Origin: Botryllus schlosseri | Lineage: Eukaryota | Direction: 5' to 3' | Assembly: GCA_051294905.1 (NCBI GenBank) | Contig: CM119371.1 | Location: 9,488,001-9,552,000, forward strand | DNA length: 64,000 bases | In this document: one piece after another, positions 855 through 41,679 of the stretch | Position numbering within the stretch: position 1 is the first letter of the stretch | How the letters are laid out: each line of letters begins with the position of its first letter | Notes under the pieces: generated by a model | Databases searched by the model: none | What the model was told of the DNA's origin: nothing | Seen by the model: only the letters and a program-made list of their open reading frames with translations | Program-made: the position numbers and the translations under genes

Positions 855-3348
855 CAGTGGTTCTCAACCGGTGTGCCGCGGCACACTAGTGTGCCGTTTA
901 CGTCTTGCAAGTGTGCCGCGAGCGATTTCATCGAAATTTTGAAATTATGCGCAAAATAATTCTAGTCTAATCCACACGATCATCAACGTAAAATCGAGCT
1001 TGATGTGAAGTTTGTATGCGCATTTGACATATGCTCGTAATCAATATCCGCCGCGAATTACCTTTACTCATCCCGCGTGCTTTGATGGCTGAATTCTAAT
1101 CCTTATTGTCTCCCCAATCACCAGCGAGAAATGAACTCCTTTGAAAGGGACATAGCAATCCACATTGCGATTGTTAGGACCTGTTAGGTAGCGTCGCGGC
1201 ATTTTCGTTAAAATTTAGGCTTGTATAGCACTATCGTTGTGCTACCGGCGATTGATATGAGAATTGAGAAGTAAGGTTGATCAAAATGTAATAGTTAACA
1301 AACTTCCTCGCCGCTGAGGTTATTAACTTGGTTTGTTGGAAATATATTGAACTGCAGGTGGCTGCCAGTAGAACTATTGAGGTATGGCTATATATCCTCA
1401 CGCGATCTGCGTGGAAATGTACTGTATAGCCTACGCCTCTGTATTCGTTGGTGGCGATCGTGCTTGACCTCGTCGATGCGATGGTTGTTGTTGTTTGTGG
1501 TATTCATGGTGTTTGTCGACTACTATGGTCATTTACACCAGGCCGATATTCCGTATTTTTGATTCCGTATCTGCCCACTTCCAGGCTTTTTGTAAGACAT
1601 CGCTTACGTGCAGCACCGTAACTGCCGCACCCCAAACCCCCCAATTGGGGGGGCCCGAGCTCGAAGGGGGCCCAAAATATTTTCGTGAATTAGCATAAAT
1701 CATAAAGTATTTTTTGAAAATTGATGCCAATTTTTCAAAATTTTTTCGCGCTGCGCGCGAATTCATGAAGCCGTTTATCTTTATTATTGGGTATTAGGCC
1801 ATATAACATGCGACTCCAAGAAGTGTGCCAGAACGATCGGCAGCGAGAAAACCTTGGCCGAAAAGGTGAATGCCCTTATGCTGAACGAAGACGGCGTTCT
1901 ATATATAAAATACACATAGGTTTAATTGTACATAGGCGCCTAAATGACTGACGCCGAATGTTCCTGTCTTTGCAATCTGAACCTCACAAGACAAATACCA
2001 TCCCGATGGGAAAAAAATTATGCCAGTGAAGAAATACCAATTTGAAATCGTGTGCGTCTCTTAGTTTAGAAGCCTACGTTTGGGCGATTCTATATGTTTT
2101 GATATAGCAGACTGGAAGTCACGACATAACATCATGTAACGAAGTCATACCAACGGGTCCGCCCGCCAGAAGATGTTTAATTATTATTTACGGGCCACCC
2201 CGTTTTCAAGACACTTCACTCAGCTCTACCGGTAAATCTAATTACGTGAGTAGAGAGGAAAATAAATTGATAGCATAATATATATGCAATCGCCTATCTG
2301 ATTGACCGATTTTATCATAAATTATCGAAAATTTTCGCGCTTCGCGCTGGCTCACAATACAGTACAGTTGATTTCGTGACAAACGCGAACAATGTGATGG
2401 GGGGTCGTTTTATCACCCTATGGGAGCCCAAGACCCACGTTTTTGGGGGCCTGACGAGGTGCTGTTTCGTTCCTGCCAACGGGTATACGCCTGAAGATGT
2501 TTAATTATTAATGGAGTGGTCCTACCTTTTCAAACACACCTCACTCAGCTCTACCGGCAAATCTGATTACGTGAGCAGAGAGAAGATAAAAATTGATAAC
2601 AATATAGGCAATTCCCGATCATACTGACCGATTCAATCATGAATTCTAGAAATTTTTCCGCGCTTAGCGTGCTTAGGCGACAAAAGCTGATCCACCAAAC
2701 AAACTCCCAATGATAATGATAAATAGCGGTAAACAGTGTATCGCCGGAGGGGGGTCTGGGGGGCTATGCCCCCCAGAAGTTAGGTCTATAACCCTATGGG
2801 AGGCCCAAGACCAAAGTTTTTGGGGGGGCCTGACGAAGTGCTGTTACGGCCCTGCTTACGTGGATGCAATGGTTAATAAAGGCAATTGTTTGTTGCAATA
2901 AAGGCAATTGTCATTTTACTTCAATTTTCCACGTCGTATTTGTGCGACACCGGATTTTCCGTTCTAGTCAATATAAAAACCAAATAAAGGGAGAGATTAC
3001 TTGCCGTCGAAGAAGAGATGAGAGTAGCATTATCAAATATGCGTCCAGACATTGAAAGGATATGCGCAAGAAGTCAAGCGCAAATTTCGCACTGACTTTG
3101 TCTGTGATAAAATTCAATAAATTGTTTTGTTTTCGCGAAACCTGTTCAATTTAACGCAGAAACATCTTGTATTGACTGCAGAGGTGGTCACATTATTCAG
3201 CGTTATTACTGAAGTCGAATCAGTTGAGTATTCTGGTAGTTCGCAGGTGCTGTAAGCCAAAAAAGTTCAGAACGGCTGTGCTGGTGTGCCGCGAACAATT
3301 TTTCATTTCCAAAGGGTGCCGCGAGGTCAAAAAGGTTGAGAACCACTG
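855..3348. mobile_element. Non-autonomous hAT (Charlie-type) element
   Basis: TIR CAGTGGTTCTCAACC at 855 and GGTTGAGAACCACTG ending 3348. Perfect 8-bp TSD CCCTAGCA at 847-854 and 3349-3356. Contains a nested element at 1611-2854. Confidence 0.9.
1611..2854 (+). mobile_element. Non-autonomous hAT-like element, family X, copy 1 (nested)
   Basis: Imperfect TIRs CAGCACCGTAAC / GTTACGGCCCTG. Perfect 8-bp TSD CTTACGTG at 1603-1610 and 2855-2862. Near-identical copy at 35563-36864. Confidence 0.9.
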
Positions 3349-3676
3349 CCCTAGCAGATTACCACTCGACTGTTGGGAATTATGCTGCATTACGTCACGG
3401 CGACGCTGCTACTCCGATTTCGATAGCCCAAGTTTACATCAGTCAAATATTCACACGAACCACCTGCGGCGATAACTGCGGTAACTCGGCAATCATGATG
3501 TTGTGGATATTTTATTCTACGCTACTGTAATCCACTCAAAGTTTCGGGAGTTTGTGTACAATTGTGCATGCGTGCACGGACTGATTACCAGAGAACCCGG
3601 CCCTTGGAGAACCCGGCCCTACCAACCCGGCCCTTGGAGAACCCGGCCCTTGGAGAACCCGGCCCTCGGAGTATTC

Positions 3677-3985
3677 ACCGGCAATCCTAATATCCCACCT
3701 CCGGCAACCCTAATATCCTCACCATACCCCTAATATCCCACCCCCGGCAACCCTAACCCTACCCCTAATATCCTACCCTAACCCTAATATCCCACCTCCG
3801 GCAACCCTAATATCCCACCTCCACCAACCCTAATATCCCACCTCCGGCAACCCTAATATCCCACCTCCACCAACCCTAATATCCCACCTCCGGCCACCCT
3901 AATATCCCACCTCCACCAACCCTAATATCCCACCCCCGGCAACCCTAATATCCCAACCCTAACCCTAATATCCCACCTCAACCTA
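3677..3985. repeat. Telomere-like ~23-bp tandem array (AACCCTAATATCCCACCTCCGGC) with AACCCTAACCCT runs
   Basis: About 13 degenerate units, most containing CCCTAA, just inside the left TIR of the MULE element. Confidence 0.85.
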
Positions 3986-4050
3986 CAGTTGCATTGCCCT
4001 TAACAGCATGCTCTGACCAACTTCACACAATCAATTGAATCAGGTAAATG

Positions 4051-4230
4051 TCACATCTAATATAATGGAATAAAAACGACAAAATCACATCTAATATAAA
4101 TAAAAACGACAAAATCACATCTAATATAAATAAAAACGACAAAATCACATCTAATATAAATAAAAACGACAAAACCACATCTAATATAAATAAAAACGAC
4201 AAAACCACATCTAATATAAAAGAACGACAA
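4051..4230. repeat. 30-bp tandem repeat (AAAATCACATCTAATATAAATAAAAACGAC) x~6
   Basis: Directly visible. Lies just 3' of the transposase stop codon and explains the spurious repetitive ORF at 4023-4208. Confidence 0.9.
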
Positions 4231-4251
4231 AATCACAAAAATCTAATCTAA

Positions 4252-6153
4252 TCAGGTTTGTTCTTCTTCAGAAATGGGCCCATTAATCCCAGCAATGTCT
4301 TTCAGTAGTCGACGGGGTGTCTTCCTCCCTTTCTTGAATTCCCTCCACAATTTATATAACTGTCCATCGACTAATCGGCACTCCTTGCGGCGGCGTTTTT
4401 TGATCTTTCCTTCAGAGAGGAGGGCCACCTGTTCACGCGAGAACGACGCTTCCTCATTCAAGAGAAGAATGAGGCTATACATTGGCATGTTGCGCCGTCC
4501 TCGCATGTTCAGGCGGTGGTGCCATCCCTCCAAGTCATTGTTCGTACGGATTGCTGTATCGTACACACTCCAATTCCGCGGTTTGAATTTTTTGGACGTG
4601 ATCCATGTGGTTTGAAAATACTGGAACAATGGTTCTAGTTTCGGGTCCGTGTGTTTAAGCCTTAGCCTTGAAAAACTTGGCTCTATGAGCTCAGCAGGCA
4701 TATAACACAGACTCATTAACTGCTTCATAGCAGAATGAGTGGCTTTTCTCGCGAAGTAATATTTCGACAGCCCCAACTCCTTAATCTTCCGGAACACACA
4801 TTGTGTGAAGTGGAAGGAGCAACCCTTCACGTCTACTCCAGTAAGCGCCGCAGATAACGATTTCCAAATGGCCAACTCAAAGTCGCATACCACTCTTTTT
4901 ACTCGGCATTCGCCGACAGCATCAATTACTTTGTTGAGGACAGCGACATAGTCTGCTTTCCGTCTTCGCGACATTAGGGCAAACACTAAGGGTATTTGCT
5001 TTGTTGCAGTCCCAGATCGAATAAATGCATGGATGGAGAATAGTTGGTAAAAGGGTTTTCGGACAACTTTGAACGTTGCATCCACATACCACGTTTTCGA
5101 ATTTTTTAGGAGGTCCATCTGCTGCTCAGAAGCAAATATGAGGTGACGGGCCCCTTCTAGTATGACATCTCCAAGCAGAAAATTTGATGGGATGTTGTCA
5201 ATATCAAGTTCGAAGTCGATTGTCTTCGGTTCCTGCGGCCTTGAACTTGCACGCGCATAGTTGGCTTGCCTTACCAAATTGTCAAGAGGTGTCAACCCCG
5301 GCAGAGGACGCTTATTATCAAGCAGGTGCTTGCTGCACACGGCTTGAGCAATCCGTGCAGCGGATTCAAAAGGATTCTTCATAGCTGTGGACTTTGTCTC
5401 CTTAGAAATCAAGGCGCTCTTGTAGACTCCGGGAACTCCAGGGTGAATGTGAAGACTCTTGCCCTTTGTAAAATTGGCACCATGCTGCTTCACCGTTGCG
5501 GAGCAGCGATTGTCTTTCCACCGATACTTGCACCTCCAAAGTACCGAGCCATCCTTGTTTTCCTTCTTCCTGGTGTAAGAGTGACCCCGACCATCAAACA
5601 GCATATCGCATCCTCTTTCCGATACGCCCTCCACAATATTATATGTTGACTGGTCCGAGCAAGACACCTCAGAACTGATCTGAGCAGCAGAAGGGTCGGA
5701 TAGAGACGATTCAACAATATCATCTTCCTGCAAAAAAAAAACATGGTTAAAACTCGATCACATCCAACAGCATAGCATTGTTCAACTTACGTGGTTGTCA
5801 AATGGCCCAGCTTGAGTTACATCAATAACACGTGCTCCTTCCAATACACCCTCAATAAGTTGAGCACCAGCAAGGTGATTAATTGGAGAAGGGGGCGGTG
5901 GCTATAAAATAAAGATGATTAAAACCTAATAACAGAAAGCAGGTTCTTCCGAATTACTCACAAGCAAATCAGGTCGACATTCCGAACATTGGAAGTCCAC
6001 ACTACAGTCTTCTTTAACAATTCGTAAGTAGTCTTCTCGAGACATAATATCTTGTGGGCCACAAGCGATGTGCTGCCACATGCCACACCCATCGCATTTC
6101 AGAGCAGCTTCTTCATCTAAAACCTCGCTGTTACATGAAACGCAGATATCCAT
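4252..6153 (-). CDS. PHD finger-FLYWCH-MULE DDE transposase, 3 exons (6153-5962, 5901-5791, 5727-4252), 592 aa predicted
   Basis: Exon 1 is a C4HC3 PHD-like finger (CVSC..CDGCGMWQHIAC..FQCSEC). Phase-0 introns 5961-5902 (GTGAGT..TTTTATAG) and 5790-5728 (GTAAGT..TTTTGCAG). Exon 3 has FLYWCH (YTRK..WRC..C..HIH) and MULE motifs YVDATFK, VVCDFE, GCSFH, TNNDLEGWH. Confidence 0.85.
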
Positions 6154-6544
6154 CTTCTTATACTTCCTTCCCTCGCCAAGTCAAATCAATACTGAGCCGG
6201 CCACGCGTGGTCGATATGTGAAAGTCGCGTTCTTTCCCGCGCTTGGCGCTTGCGCAATCCGTGATCACGTGATCTGATCACGCCGTGACTGCGTGACCTA
6301 CGCATGCCCTGACCTCCTTACAAGACCGACAAATCAGTTGATATTAACATTATTACTTTATTAATTCATATTAATACTTGTGAATACACTTAATTTCAAA
6401 ATTTCCCAAGGAATTCACCGAGGGCCGGGTTCTCCAAGGGCCGGGTTCTCCAAGGGCCGGGTTGGTAGGGCCGGGTTCTCCAAGGGCCGGGTTCTCCGGC
6501 AACCCACGGACTGATTACACCAGCATTCAAGGACACATAATTTG

Positions 6545-9500
6545 TAGGGATGGTGTGAACGTCAGGTTCACATTCGGGTTCTGTGTGTGAACCTCAGAAA
6601 TTTAGAGGCTCACGTTCACAAACAAACCTTGGTTGGTTCTGGGCTGTGAACCTTTTTCATATGTTGCAGTTTCTCACTTTTTTTGTTGAAATTCTTTGCA
6701 TTTCAACTGGTACTACTTTATGCATAGCGCTGACAGCATACAAAAATCAACACTAACCGGGCATGCACCTGCCACTCTCAAAAATTTTGCTTGCTTTGTT
6801 ACAAAAGTCTGCTCGAAATATCCAGCTTTCCGTTTGTGAATATTTAATTACTCTCTGCTGTGAGTCTGACCCGCAATCACACAACATCAATTGCTAAATA
6901 CACTACATGTAGGTAGTCAGAGAGTGATGCTTATTCAATCAATCAATGAAATTGATGTCGTTGTCTAAAGTAAAAAATCTAGCAAGAGCATGGAGTCCAA
7001 CTCGATTTCATATGTCTATTGTATCATAAAAACCAAATACGGGCGACCGGAGTGTTGGATACTGCTGTATAACTTGTTAATAGGGTAACACCACTGAGCT
7101 ATATTAATACCCGTTTTACACTCTGCTCAATATCAACGTAGCTATACTTAGACACCTAGTACATTGTCCGGTCTATCCTAGACCGTTAAGGCGTAACTTA
7201 TATTCCCTTGGAAGTCCTCGTCGAAATTGTTGGTGAAGCGACGGGAGATATGGATTTTATGGGTTTATGATATCACTTGATTGCCCCAGTTGATACATAT
7301 GGCGACGTTTAAAACGTCAATATGTACTTCAGCATTGTGGCACTATGTGGCCATTCATACAAGCTATTACTTCACTGAAATATAGGGTTGGAATTAGCAA
7401 TATGACGTCACGTGACGTCATGAGGTTCACGTTCGCGTTCACACAGCACTTTTCAAAAAGGTTCGCGTTCACACGAACCTGAACCTTTCAGAGGTTCGCA
7501 CCATTGCTAGTGTGAACGTCAGGTTCACATTCGGCTTTTGTGTATGAATTTAGAGCAGTGGTTCTCAACCTTTTTGGCTTCGCGGACCCCTTTTGACCGT
7601 CACGGACCCTCGCGGACCCCCTCAAGTTTTAGTTCAATTTTCGCTCTATTATGGTGCAACCTTCATCTGTCTTGTGCAAATATGAACTGTAGGCTCGTGA
7701 TAAACAGCAAAATAATGATTTTTCTTGAAGATAACATCATACTCTTTATGTAGAAATTGGTGGACTTTTATTATTCCCAAGCTAATTTTGCTGCTGTCTT
7801 TCTTGAAGTACGTGTTCGTGTCTTGAAATATATGTTCATATTTTATGAACATATCACGTCCAGCATCTAGCGCAGGTACGGGCAACATACGGACCGCTGG
7901 CCGGATTCGGCCCGCGACGATATTTTGATCGGCCCGGAGAGAGTTTCTACCGTCAAAGTGAAATTCTAATCTAAAAGTATAGACAAATTTTATGCTCCAA
8001 AGAATGGATCCAAGTTTTCCAACCAGAGAAAGACTGTCATGAAACGACTTGTTCTGTTCGGGTTTACATATATATTTACGAGCAATGATTTTCGACCATG
8101 AACAATTGAACATTAACAAGACAAGGCTGCATACCAATATAACTGGTGATATGAATTTCAGGGTTGGAGCGTAGTGCTTTGATAGCAACGAAACACTCCT
8201 TGTTCATCAAAAAATCAGCCTTGTCGATAGGGCATCCGCAATAAGAATGCGCAAAATCTGATAGCCGAGCTTTAAGAGCAGGTATATCATTGTCCGATTT
8301 ATGACGAGTGTCAGCCGAAAATATTCGGGTTCATTTCAATATGAATATACTATTCAATTGTATATTAAAGTTCTGTACCTCTAAGAAGCTGCTCCATGCA
8401 TTGGGACAAATTATGGAAATACTTCGGAATTTTTTATTTCGAACGACTGTTCACTAATTTGATGAGACTGACAACTTCAAATCGAGAATGTTTCGCAGAC
8501 ATTACGAAGTCACCCTGATTAACGTTACATCTCCACATTTTTCTCCATATCAAAACGTCTCTAAACAGCAATATGTTTGTATCAGCAGGTTATTGGAAAA
8601 TTGGCAATGAAAATGAGTTTCCACACTACGATAGTCCATGTCAGACGATTATTACGATGATAGGAGTCATGAGGTTTTAGCAGTTGTGGTGCAAAACTAC
8701 CTCATGCCTTCTCAAATTATAAAAATAAAATAAAAATTAGTTTATCAACCATGTTAAAAATTTAGAGGTCTCGCGGACCCCCTGAAATTGCTTTGCGGAC
8801 CCCTAGGGGTCCGCGGACCCCCGGTTGAGAACCACTGGTTTAGAGGATCACGTTCACGTTCTGGGCTGTGAACCTTTTTGGTATATTACAGTTTATCACG
8901 TCATTATAACATCTTTTGTTGAAATTTCTGCATTTCAACTTGCATGCATGCATGCATGGTGCTGGCAGCATAACAAAAATCAACACTTAATGAGCATGCA
9001 ACTCGCCAATCTCAAATATTTTACTTGTTTGTTTTGTTAAAACAGTTTGCTCGAAATATTCATTTTCCGTTTGTGAATGTTTAGTGACTCTCTGCTGTGA
9101 GCTTGATCCGCAATCACACAGAATCAATAACGAAATACACTGCATTTAGGTAGTCGGCAAATGACGCTTATTCAACCGATCAATAAAATTGATATAAAGG
9201 CTATATCGCTGTCTAATGTAAAAATTCGAGCAGACGTACGGGACCCATCTCGATTTGATATGTTTGCTGTATCTTAAAAACTAACTCCGTGTGATTGAAG
9301 TGAAGGCTACTGCATAACATGTTTATGGAATAACATCGGTAACAAGTATAGATACCCATTTTACACTCTGCAATAGTCACACGCCAAACACAATGTCAGG
9401 TCAGGTCTAAATCGTTAAGGCGCAAGCTTAGATTCCCTCAGCAGTCCTCGTCCACATTGTTGGCTAAGCGACGAAAAATATTGATTTTATTTGATGGCAT

Positions 9501-39449: not shown

Positions 39450-41679
39450 CAGTGATGAGCGGAGTCTGCTTTTCCAGACTCCGAGTCCCTCCTACAACTT
39501 TGGTCTGTGAGGCAAAGTCCCTCCGACTCCGGGCAGCTCAATCCCAGACTCCGAGATAACCCGAAGAATCTTGTCCAGTCTACGAAACATCCATATCGGT
39601 AGAGGTAGTTCTTAAAAAACATTGTCGAAGAATCCCAATGATAGCAACTCTTGATAGCAACTCTTAGTTCCTCTGTCAGTGTCAGCTTCCGCTTCAAAGA
39701 TGAAGCCTCCTCATCCAACTTAGGTTTCATCGTAAATCTGGATGGCAAAACGTCGTCGGCACTCACTTTGCCATGCATTGCCCCAATTTCGATCAAGGCA
39801 TCAGCCATCTGCTTGAGGTCCTTCCCCTCAATAGAGCTCGGTGGTCTGATATCATGGGATACAAAGGAGACAACCACAACACCACGGACAAAACTTCTCC
39901 TTTGATTTCTCGCTTACTTTTTTGTTGGAAGAAAGAAAGGAACTTATCTTCAACTGCGATCCATTCTTCTTACACGCTTCGATATGTCTTCGAAGATGCG
40001 ACGTACCACTTGTCATTTGTCAACATGTGATGCTTTAGCTAAACATTGCAATTTTGACATCTCGCAAACCCAGTATACTGGCCATTATTATCATGCTTCA
40101 GAGTGAAATCCTTCCACACGTCACTTTTTTTCTGCCTCTTTGTGGGTAACCCACTTGACGTCGACGGAGGAAAACCAGTCAGTCCGAACTACCTACCACT
40201 TACATCGACGATCACATCACAGGTTTCAGTAAATTAAGTTCAGTTCCGCATCGCCATGAAACAGTTGATGGAGCTGCACTAAACAGACTTGATGCATCAC
40301 TGACGCACCGCACCGATCGACGCTCCTTGGAGTTGACTAAATGACTATTGACTTCCAATTTTAAAGCTGCTACATGATATCTGGAATTTGGAGTTTGAGA
40401 CAGACCAGCAGCAGAATCTTGTTTGCGGTGCTGATTTTTCTTATCACATCAAAGTCATTTTTCAATCAAACCAAACATTACATGACGCAAATTCAGAAGA
40501 GTTCTGGATGACTGATTACGTCAATCAATATTGAAGGAAGCGTAGTTGATGCGAGTTGCGAGCAGAGCAAAGCAGACGGTTGTAGTTATTTAGTGTGGCT
40601 GTTCAGAAATTCAGAATATTTTGTTTTTACTGGGTAAGATCAGCTTACCTCAGTGATTTATGTATTGTTAAAATCTTTGAAGCGGGCTTAGATGCTGGTA
40701 TGCCCATGTAAGCGGATCTTACTAGCGAAAATTCATCGCAACGTCATTCAATCATTATAACACATTGTATAAGTTTTTATTGTTTCAATCCAGAAACTTG
40801 CTTGTTGTATGTATATTTCTCACAGATATAAAAGTAATCTTGATGTAACACTTATTATCGATATCTCTCACTGCAGAGTAGTAAAGTAGCAAAGTACGAT
40901 GAAAGTTGCGAAAAGTTCTCACAAAAGTGGCATCACATATTATCTTGTTTCAACTGATACCAACGTTGGGAATACATTTTCACAAAATGGACCTATTACT
41001 ACGTTGAATGTCATCAAGATAATGGGATATATTCCGTTATGATCATGAACTTGCTGGAAGAATCAGGGTAGCTAAAGGTTGTACCATTGGGAAGCCCCGC
41101 TGTATGTTGCTGATTGTAAATGTTTCGCACAATTACTGGGGTAGCATGAAAATCAGTCACGAAACAAATACGCAAGGAGAATTGTGACTATAGAAGACTG
41201 CAATGACAGCAACGTTGAAGATTCTGGAGATCTTATCTCATAATACGGTGACATTCAGCTGTGGATTCAAAGACTGCATCTCAAGGCAGGGAGCAAATGA
41301 TGCACTGCGGATGATGTTGGGCGCCTTTAATTTTGTGAACTACAGACTCTGCTCAACGAAAATGCCTTGCTAGATCACTAGGTTACTCTCCAGTCCCCAA
41401 TTACAGTGCAGATGGCTGATTGCTACGCACTTGGCAATAATTTTTGCATGTTACCCTTCATATTACAACTTTACAAGGTGTCAACTGTCTGTGTTTTGGT
41501 TTGTAATCAATAGTGTCTTCTGGTCAGAGCTATCGAATGATAACGGGGGCAAAACTTACAACACTCCGGGAAACTCCGGAAAAATATCTGTAGTAAACTC
41601 CGGGTCCACTCCGAGTATCACAAAATTGGCAAAACTCCGCTCCGGATACACTCCGACTCCGCTCCGATGCTCATCACTG
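39450..41679. mobile_element. Non-autonomous hAT element with transposase remnant
   Basis: TIR CAGTGATGAGC / GCTCATCACTG. Perfect TSD ATACGCAT (39442-39449, 41680-41687). Subterminal CTCCG repeats. Confidence 0.9.
39640..40140 (-). pseudogene. hobo/Hermes-type hAT transposase N-terminal remnant (BED finger + Hermes-like DNA-binding domain)
   Basis: KSDVWKDF..ARCQNC(stop)..SGTSHLRRHIEAC (frameshifted), then DIRPPSSIEG..LIEIGAMHGKVSADDVLPSRFTM. Confidence 0.75.

Follow-up and report, generated by a model that had tools for sequence, protein, structure and literature searches.

A stretch of 64,000 nucleotides from Botryllus schlosseri (NCBI GenBank assembly GCA_051294905.1, contig CM119371.1, positions 9,488,001 to 9,552,000 of the forward strand; called the window in the following, with position 1 as its first letter) very probably carries an intact, autonomous Mutator-like element (MULE), a cut-and-paste DNA transposon of about 2.9 kb (roughly 3584-6504) on the minus strand. 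With the same high confidence we read its transposase gene as a single gene of three exons, whose product starts with a PHD finger of the Pygopus type and continues through a variable linker and a FLYWCH finger to a DDE/RNase-H-like MULE core. In all likelihood, this layout was inherited from an old and widespread metazoan clade and was not newly assembled in the window copy. The window element is an ordinary representative of an already known kind.

The transposase gene lies on the minus strand and consists of three exons, 6153-5962, 5901-5791 and 5727-4252 (Table 1). The spliced reading frame comprises 1779 nucleotides (nt), made up of 592 codons and a single terminal stop. Both introns preserve the frame, and each contains two in-frame stops on read-through translation, so that the exons can be joined solely by splicing. 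The transposase frame is also the sole stop-to-stop frame of more than 200 amino acids (aa) within the window. A preliminary description of this DNA had joined separate open reading frames of 75 and 493 aa through two GT-AG introns (60 and 63 nt) and a 111-nt linker exon, and its coordinates agree with ours. The single 592-aa protein with PHD, FLYWCH and MULE parts that it deduced from them was borne out by the Pfam matches, the stops in the introns, the open spliced frame and the joints in RNA reads.

Pfam identified the MULE family PF10551 in exon 3 (E 1.2e-8, 35.7 bits, cut-off 27.6), FLYWCH PF04500 in the same exon (E 3.1e-4, 21.3 bits, cut-off 23.6, profile positions 5-62 of 62), and a PHD finger in exon 1 (E 7.6e-5, 23.1 bits, cut-off 24). 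Exon 2 matched no Pfam family. Homologues exceed the FLYWCH cut-off, for example P0009 with 39.5 bits. In an alignment of 27 sequences, including 26 homologues, D216, D282, C303 and H306 were invariant and E400 was at least 90% conserved (exon-3 numbering; adding 101 gives the numbering of the spliced protein). The FLYWCH residues C66, C75 and H93 were also at least 90% conserved. D/D/E together with (C/D)xxH is given as the catalytic signature of MULEs in the available part of PMC5499845, and the catalytic alignment upheld the earlier statement that D/D/CxxH/E is intact in the window copy. A sequence search of the PDB with exon 3 found no MULE transposase structure and returned only a chance-level match to a T-cell receptor (E 0.32).

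The zinc ligands of exon 1 follow the C4HC3 pattern (C4, C7, C20, C23, H28, C31, C56, C59) with canonical spacing, C-x2-C-x12-C-x2-C-x4-H-x2-C-x24-C-x2-C. All eight ligands were invariant in 27 aligned sequences, and Y42 was at least 90% conserved. A tryptophan two residues ahead of the zinc-binding His, W26, was at least 90% conserved in an alignment of 14 sequences. Its position is presumably the site of the cage tryptophan in BPTF, ING2 and RAG2, which are readers of methylated H3K4. The residue before the first Cys is non-aromatic, namely I3 in the window copy and P, D, R, T, S or V in homologues.

An AlphaFold2 model of exon 1, calculated with a 27-sequence alignment, had a pLDDT of 87.3 and a pTM of 0.68. 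When the model was compared with the PDB by Foldseek, the top rows were PHD fingers (probability 1.00), with the best E value, 1.4e-3, for MLL3 PHD6 with histone H4. The Pygopus PHD finger was matched with a TM score of 0.72-0.76 and a root mean square deviation of 2.1-2.4; further rows included MLL4 PHD6, BPTF and MLL1 PHD3. The best fold matches, Pygopus PHD and MLL3/MLL4 PHD6, thus belong to host chromatin proteins. Sequence matches of exon 1 in the PDB were likewise nearly all PHD fingers (KMT2C, KMT2D, SET3, Pygo; best E 0.004). It is credible from the model that exon 1 folds as a chromatin-type PHD finger, and the PHD fold expected earlier is in line with the model confidence and with the PHD fingers as nearest neighbours in the PDB. 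The ligand of the finger is not readable from its sequence, and at 22-31% identity the specificity of known fingers should not be considered transferable.

The two joints of the gene were sought in two runs of raw RNA reads, X22 and X24, which were chosen by their species label and are from the same species (about 6% of X22 was read), and in two contig runs, X1 and X15, of which X1 is RNA or DNA by guess only. The joint 5726/5790, which fits equally well as 5727/5791, was present in 5 X22 reads with 3 different start places. One X22 read, whose shorter arm has 55 letters, spans the joint 5901/5962. Three more X22 reads stop at 5901 and continue with 14 letters that match the end of exon 1 at 13 of 14 positions, the sole mismatch in these overhangs being synonymous by codon reading. 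The joint 5901/5962 was also present in one X1 contig. Run X24 gave 17 reads placed on the window and no joint.

Similarity to the window varied among the 79 placed X22 reads: 10 were at least 99% alike, and 52 were 90-95% alike. Over positions 5799-5846, all reads and contigs differ from the window copy. As the joint reads carry variants in this region, they demonstrate expression for the family and not for the window copy. The element family is transcribed and spliced as predicted, and the joint reads derive from paralogous copies. For the check by RNA junction reads that the preliminary description had proposed, this means that both of its joints are present in X22 reads, and that these reads come from paralogues and not from the window copy.

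In the paralogous contigs from runs X1 and X15, insertions and deletions (indels) track the exon/intron map, which adds to the case for exon 1 being joined to the transposase. Intron 2 contains deletions of 3 nt and 1 nt in these contigs, and intron 1 contains insertions of 7 nt and 4 nt. In exon 3, the indels cancel or total three (4987/4989/4992, and 5507 or 5508 together with 5510), with the exception of a minority +2 at 4822 that has a depth of 8.1 of 70.3. The runs contain diverged paralogues, for example two X1 contigs over 4240-4435 with 11 and 14 differences. The joints 6197/6260 and 6242/6301 were rejected as introns, with other letters found between the two sides, and one of the two joints is in contig run X15; they represent replaced segments in paralogues.

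Homologues of the transposase are numerous. A word-index protein search with exon 3 returned 90 matches with a best identity of 54%, and an exhaustive search with the same exon returned 12,431 cluster representatives at E <= 0.001, with 519 at E <= 1e-30. Named homologues stem from amphioxus, a tunicate, a hemichordate, a crinoid, bivalves, a gastropod and a shrimp. Many of the homologues are encoded on contigs of 2-3 kb as one uninterrupted open frame of about 600-650 aa, indicating that PHD, FLYWCH and MULE are present in one protein. Many of those in NCBI are annotated merely as uncharacterized proteins.

A complete C4HC3 pattern within the first 140 residues was found in 29 of 223 fetched homologues, among them proteins of amphioxus, tunicate and molluscs, and the first six ligands in 6 more. 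When only homologues extended at the N-terminus by 60 residues or more were considered (74 proteins), the finger was full in 29 and partial in 5; several of the other 40, which lack the pattern, start mid-finger as judged by eye (e.g. P0101, P0118, P0170). Pfam PHD was matched at E <= 0.01 by 12 of the 40 homologues that were scanned (out of 90), and only P0010 was above the cut-off. The precomputed family PF27108 (PHD_Pygo) is assigned to 12 of the 90, which is an annotation of the homologues and not a score for exon 1 of the window copy. When exon 1 by itself was used for a word-index search of longer proteins, no candidate emerged, which is weak evidence. From these sequences, the PHD fusion is the usual layout of a large metazoan MULE clade, frequent in related elements from many marine invertebrates, and nothing special to the window copy. 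The N-terminal finger that homologues have within one protein also supports the joining of exon 1. The caution in the preliminary description that novelty was not established was justified, as PHD-bearing MULE relatives, the Rehavkus elements, have already been published (available part of PMC6446971).

Rehavkus is a Repbase group that is now placed in the MuDR/MULE superfamily. According to the same part of PMC6446971, it has a PHD finger and a minisatellite before the 3' inverted end, and the accessible text of bioRxiv 10.1101/2024.12.02.626372 describes inverted ends with subterminal tandem repeats. Compared by description only, the window element shares all three features: the PHD finger, the minisatellite before the 3' end and the inverted ends made of tandem repeats. 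The target duplication of Rehavkus is 9 bp. In PMC6446971 and PMC13359780, reports of Rehavkus are confined to arthropods and annelids, and the group serves as an outgroup to MULEs; Table 1 of PMC6446971 gives PHD as its only zinc finger type. The window element differs from Rehavkus in host range and in having, in addition, a FLYWCH finger and a Pfam MULE match above the cut-off.

The Phantom group, to which Muta1 belongs, resembles the window element in that its FLYWCH finger is N-terminal and precedes a MULE DDE core. The Muta1 transposase has 504 aa in the available part of PMC5499845, compared with 491 aa for exon 3. For Phantom, Table 1 of PMC6446971 gives a duplication of 8-10 bp and, in aphid Phantom elements, a minisatellite after the reading frame; unlike for the window element, that table lists no PHD finger for Phantom. 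The MULEs of Ciona and C. elegans described by Babu et al. (2006; PMC1702500, accessible part) unite in a single protein a finger of the WRKY-GCM1/FLYWCH class, a PHD finger and a MULE transposase, as the window element does, and these authors regarded this as a possibly widespread architecture. In those proteins, however, the PHD finger is C-terminal and two classic zinc fingers stand ahead of the DNA-binding domain, whereas the PHD finger of the window protein is N-terminal and has its own exon. In the literature searched, which did not cover Repbase reports, we found no published description of the N-terminal PHD-FLYWCH-MULE layout.

Histone-reading modules are attached to, or partnered with, DDE recombinases also in the case of the RAG2 PHD finger and of chromodomain integrases. 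The resemblance of these systems to the window transposase is by analogy only: they belong to other superfamilies, and the PHD finger of RAG is located on a separate subunit.

Between the PHD and FLYWCH fingers of the window protein, the start of exon 3 (5727-5680) encodes the linker motif VESSLSDP, which reads ESSIAD-P or ESNLAD-P in homologues. Motifs of this type are kept across several phyla inside an otherwise variable linker (alignment columns about 280-295). Two distant FLYWCH-MULE homologues, P0082 and P0083 (28% identity), have a C-terminal RING finger (zf-C3HC4_3) and no N-terminal PHD finger. The RING finger of P0082 and P0083 is another cross-brace zinc finger added to FLYWCH-MULE transposases.

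The gene is enclosed by two inverted ends, 3585-3676 and 6411-6502, which are 92 nt long and 96% complementary, in agreement with the near-identical terminal inverted repeats noted before. About five units of 16 nt make up each end. The window contains the unit GAGAACCCGGCCCT 8 times, where 0.02 occurrences would be expected by chance, and all 8 are inside the two ends. Flanking the ends, the direct repeat CACGGACTGATTAC was found in the window exactly twice, at 3575 and 6505. The complementarity of the ends reaches 4 nt into the left copy of CACGGACTGATTAC. Because it begins inside this copy, the true target site duplication is probably the outer 8-10 nt of CACGGACTGATTAC, to which a few extra matching bases are added; such a length would be compatible with the duplications of about 8-11 bp of MULEs. 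Two minisatellites are present, and both lie after the stop codon and before the 3' inverted end. When 3560-6530 was compared with the whole window by blastn, the 12 rows obtained all fell within 3500-6600 and hence showed no second copy of the element in the window.

A mechanism for such an element can be proposed from relatives. For Muta1, PMC5499845 (available part) describes binding to its own ends and excision through double-strand breaks, with a hairpin formed on the flanking DNA, followed by joining of the ends to the target. As exon 3 shares the layout of Muta1, the same chemistry would be expected for the window transposase. The FLYWCH finger, judging from relatives, would recognise the repeated 16-nt units of both inverted ends. 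As in Muta1, the DDE core would excise the element by double-strand breaks, leaving a hairpin on the flanking DNA, and the excised ends would then be joined to a new target, with a duplication of 8-10 nt as the trace. The PHD finger would most likely act as a tether between the transposase and a histone tail or chromatin protein and in this way bias where or when the transposase acts. Such tethering is our best-supported guess for the role of the finger. That the state of the histones steers the transposase, as had been suggested, we infer from analogy only.

It would go further to propose that the PHD finger of the metazoan clade, which spans amphioxus, tunicates, hemichordates, echinoderms, molluscs and crustaceans, reads H3K4 methylation or another tail mark and steers cutting or integration to active chromatin. 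We regard this as rather unlikely. If it were true, an H3K4-reading PHD finger would be the molecular cause of the preference of Mutator elements for the 5' ends of genes, and the transposase would be a free-living counterpart of the RAG2 PHD finger.

Several observations weigh against the reading of the window element as an intact transposon with a spliced PHD-FLYWCH-MULE gene and a chromatin-bound finger. Intron 1, which connects the PHD exon to the rest of the gene, has few supporting reads (one spanning read, three short overhangs and one contig of run X1, which is RNA by guess only). Of the X22 material that was placed, 96% continues in a way that is unlike the window. The joint-spanning reads differ from this copy at 5799, 5802, 5807, 5808 and 5825, and these exon 2 variants alter residues by codon reading. 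The PHD and FLYWCH scores of the window copy are both slightly under the curated Pfam cut-offs, and Foldseek found no match in the PDB at E <= 0.001. The outermost paired bases of the two ends include mismatches, and the 14-nt flanking repeat exceeds the 8-10 nt reported for MULEs. Finally, W26 is the sole conserved cage position and the residue before the first Cys is non-aromatic, so that reading of methyl-lysine is not assured.

The last point bears on a different role for exon 1, in which the N-terminal cross-brace finger would bind the end DNA of the element itself (the 16-nt units or the minisatellites) or recruit a host protein, and not a histone. The piggyBac transposase reportedly has a C-terminal, PHD-like cysteine-rich domain that binds its own end DNA. 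With a non-aromatic residue ahead of the first Cys, the window finger lacks a full methyl-lysine cage; homologues have basic residues (consensus VRxRQEAL) in the segment that separates the first Cys pair from the second; and the fold neighbours include the Pygo finger, which requires a partner (BCL9/Legless HD1), and MLL3/MLL4 PHD6, which reads H4. However, W26, the presumed cage tryptophan, is kept in at least 90% of the aligned sequences, the neighbours in sequence and fold are nearly all chromatin-binding PHD fingers, and the FLYWCH finger already provides a dedicated DNA-binding finger in the same protein. On balance, binding of end DNA or of a host partner is somewhat unlikely, and tethering to chromatin is retained as the role proposed for the finger.

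A second question is whether the window copy itself is alive. It may be silent or dead, with other copies as the active, transcribed members of the family, as would be suggested by the differences of every read and contig from the window copy across 5799-5846 and by the 52 of 79 placed X22 reads that are only 90-95% alike. Set against this are the fully open 592-aa frame with its conserved catalytic and zinc residues, the 96% likeness of the ends together with the perfect flanking repeat, and the 10 of 79 X22 reads that are at least 99% alike; moreover, the runs may stem from other individuals or strains. We consider a silent window copy a serious possibility that nevertheless falls well short of even chances. 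It is very improbable, by comparison, that the gene is a domesticated, transposase-derived host gene and not a mobile element. Animal host genes derived from MULE and FLYWCH sequences do exist (PMC10027918, accessible part), and the label of uncharacterized protein on many NCBI homologues would be compatible with such an origin, but the gene lies between 92-nt inverted ends and a perfect direct repeat, and the runs contain several diverged paralogues. The reading as an intact, autonomous MULE is therefore preferred.

The window element provides a clean and apparently complete reference copy of a PHD-FLYWCH-MULE transposon, for which exons, ends and subterminal repeats are defined. Its clade is hardly covered by published surveys of MULEs. 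One survey, in its available part, reports little evidence for MULEs in chordates (PMC6446971), in contrast to the clear homologues that we found in amphioxus and in a tunicate. Should the PHD finger read chromatin, the element would be a simple system for studying how histone marks aim a DDE transposase.

Table 1. Features of the window element and its transposase gene (positions in the window)
Feature	Position	Strand	Description
Flanking direct repeat, left copy	3575..3588		CACGGACTGATTAC; 14 nt, perfect
Terminal inverted repeat, gene 3' end	3585..3676		16-nt units at 3591-3671, period 16, 5.2 copies
Minisatellite 1	3678..3979		23-nt unit, 13 copies; unit contains CCCTAA
Minisatellite 2	4051..4237		30-nt unit, 6.2 copies; directly downstream of stop codon
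Exon 3	4252..5727	-	FLYWCH and MULE DDE core; 491 aa; stop TGA at 4254-4252
Intron 2	5728..5790	-	63 nt, GTAAGT...T10GCAG
Exon 2	5791..5901	-	111 nt, 37-residue linker PPPPSPINH...FDNH; varies among paralogues
Intron 1	5902..5961	-	60 nt, GTGAGT...TTATAG
Exon 1	5962..6153	-	ATG at 6153; 64 codons; PHD finger; ends before GTGAGT
5' leader, presumed promoter	6154..6410	-	upstream of ATG
Terminal inverted repeat, gene 5' end	6411..6502		16-nt units at 6421-6497
Flanking direct repeat, right copy	6505..6518		CACGGACTGATTAC; 14 nt, perfect

Within the 5' leader, a stretch of about 150 nt (6211-6356) greatly exceeded the coding part and the rest of the element in its abundance in the contig runs. 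The abundance in X1 was 605-1409 over this stretch and 13-88 elsewhere, and in X15 it was 560-1031 compared with at most 55 elsewhere. As many as 11 different contigs covered the stretch, which contains the palindromes TGATCA and CACGTG. It is not repeated elsewhere in the window, and an Rfam search of 3400-6700 gave nothing at E <= 1. The stretch may be shared with many non-autonomous derivatives of the element, or it may be a separate high-copy repeat.

The 23-nt unit of the first minisatellite, CCGGCAACCCTAATATCCCACCT, contains CCCTAA, and the gene strand of this array (3678-3979) has short runs like TTAGGGTTAGGG, the animal telomere repeat. Further away, a 46-nt inverted pair at 87% (3308-3353 and 7551-7596) brackets the element; it is probably made up of two opposite copies of another short repeat. 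On the minus strand at 39452-39913, a frame of 154 aa matches the DNA-binding domain of the Hermes transposase (PF10683, 22.3 bits, cut-off 20.5) and is probably a fragment of a hAT element.

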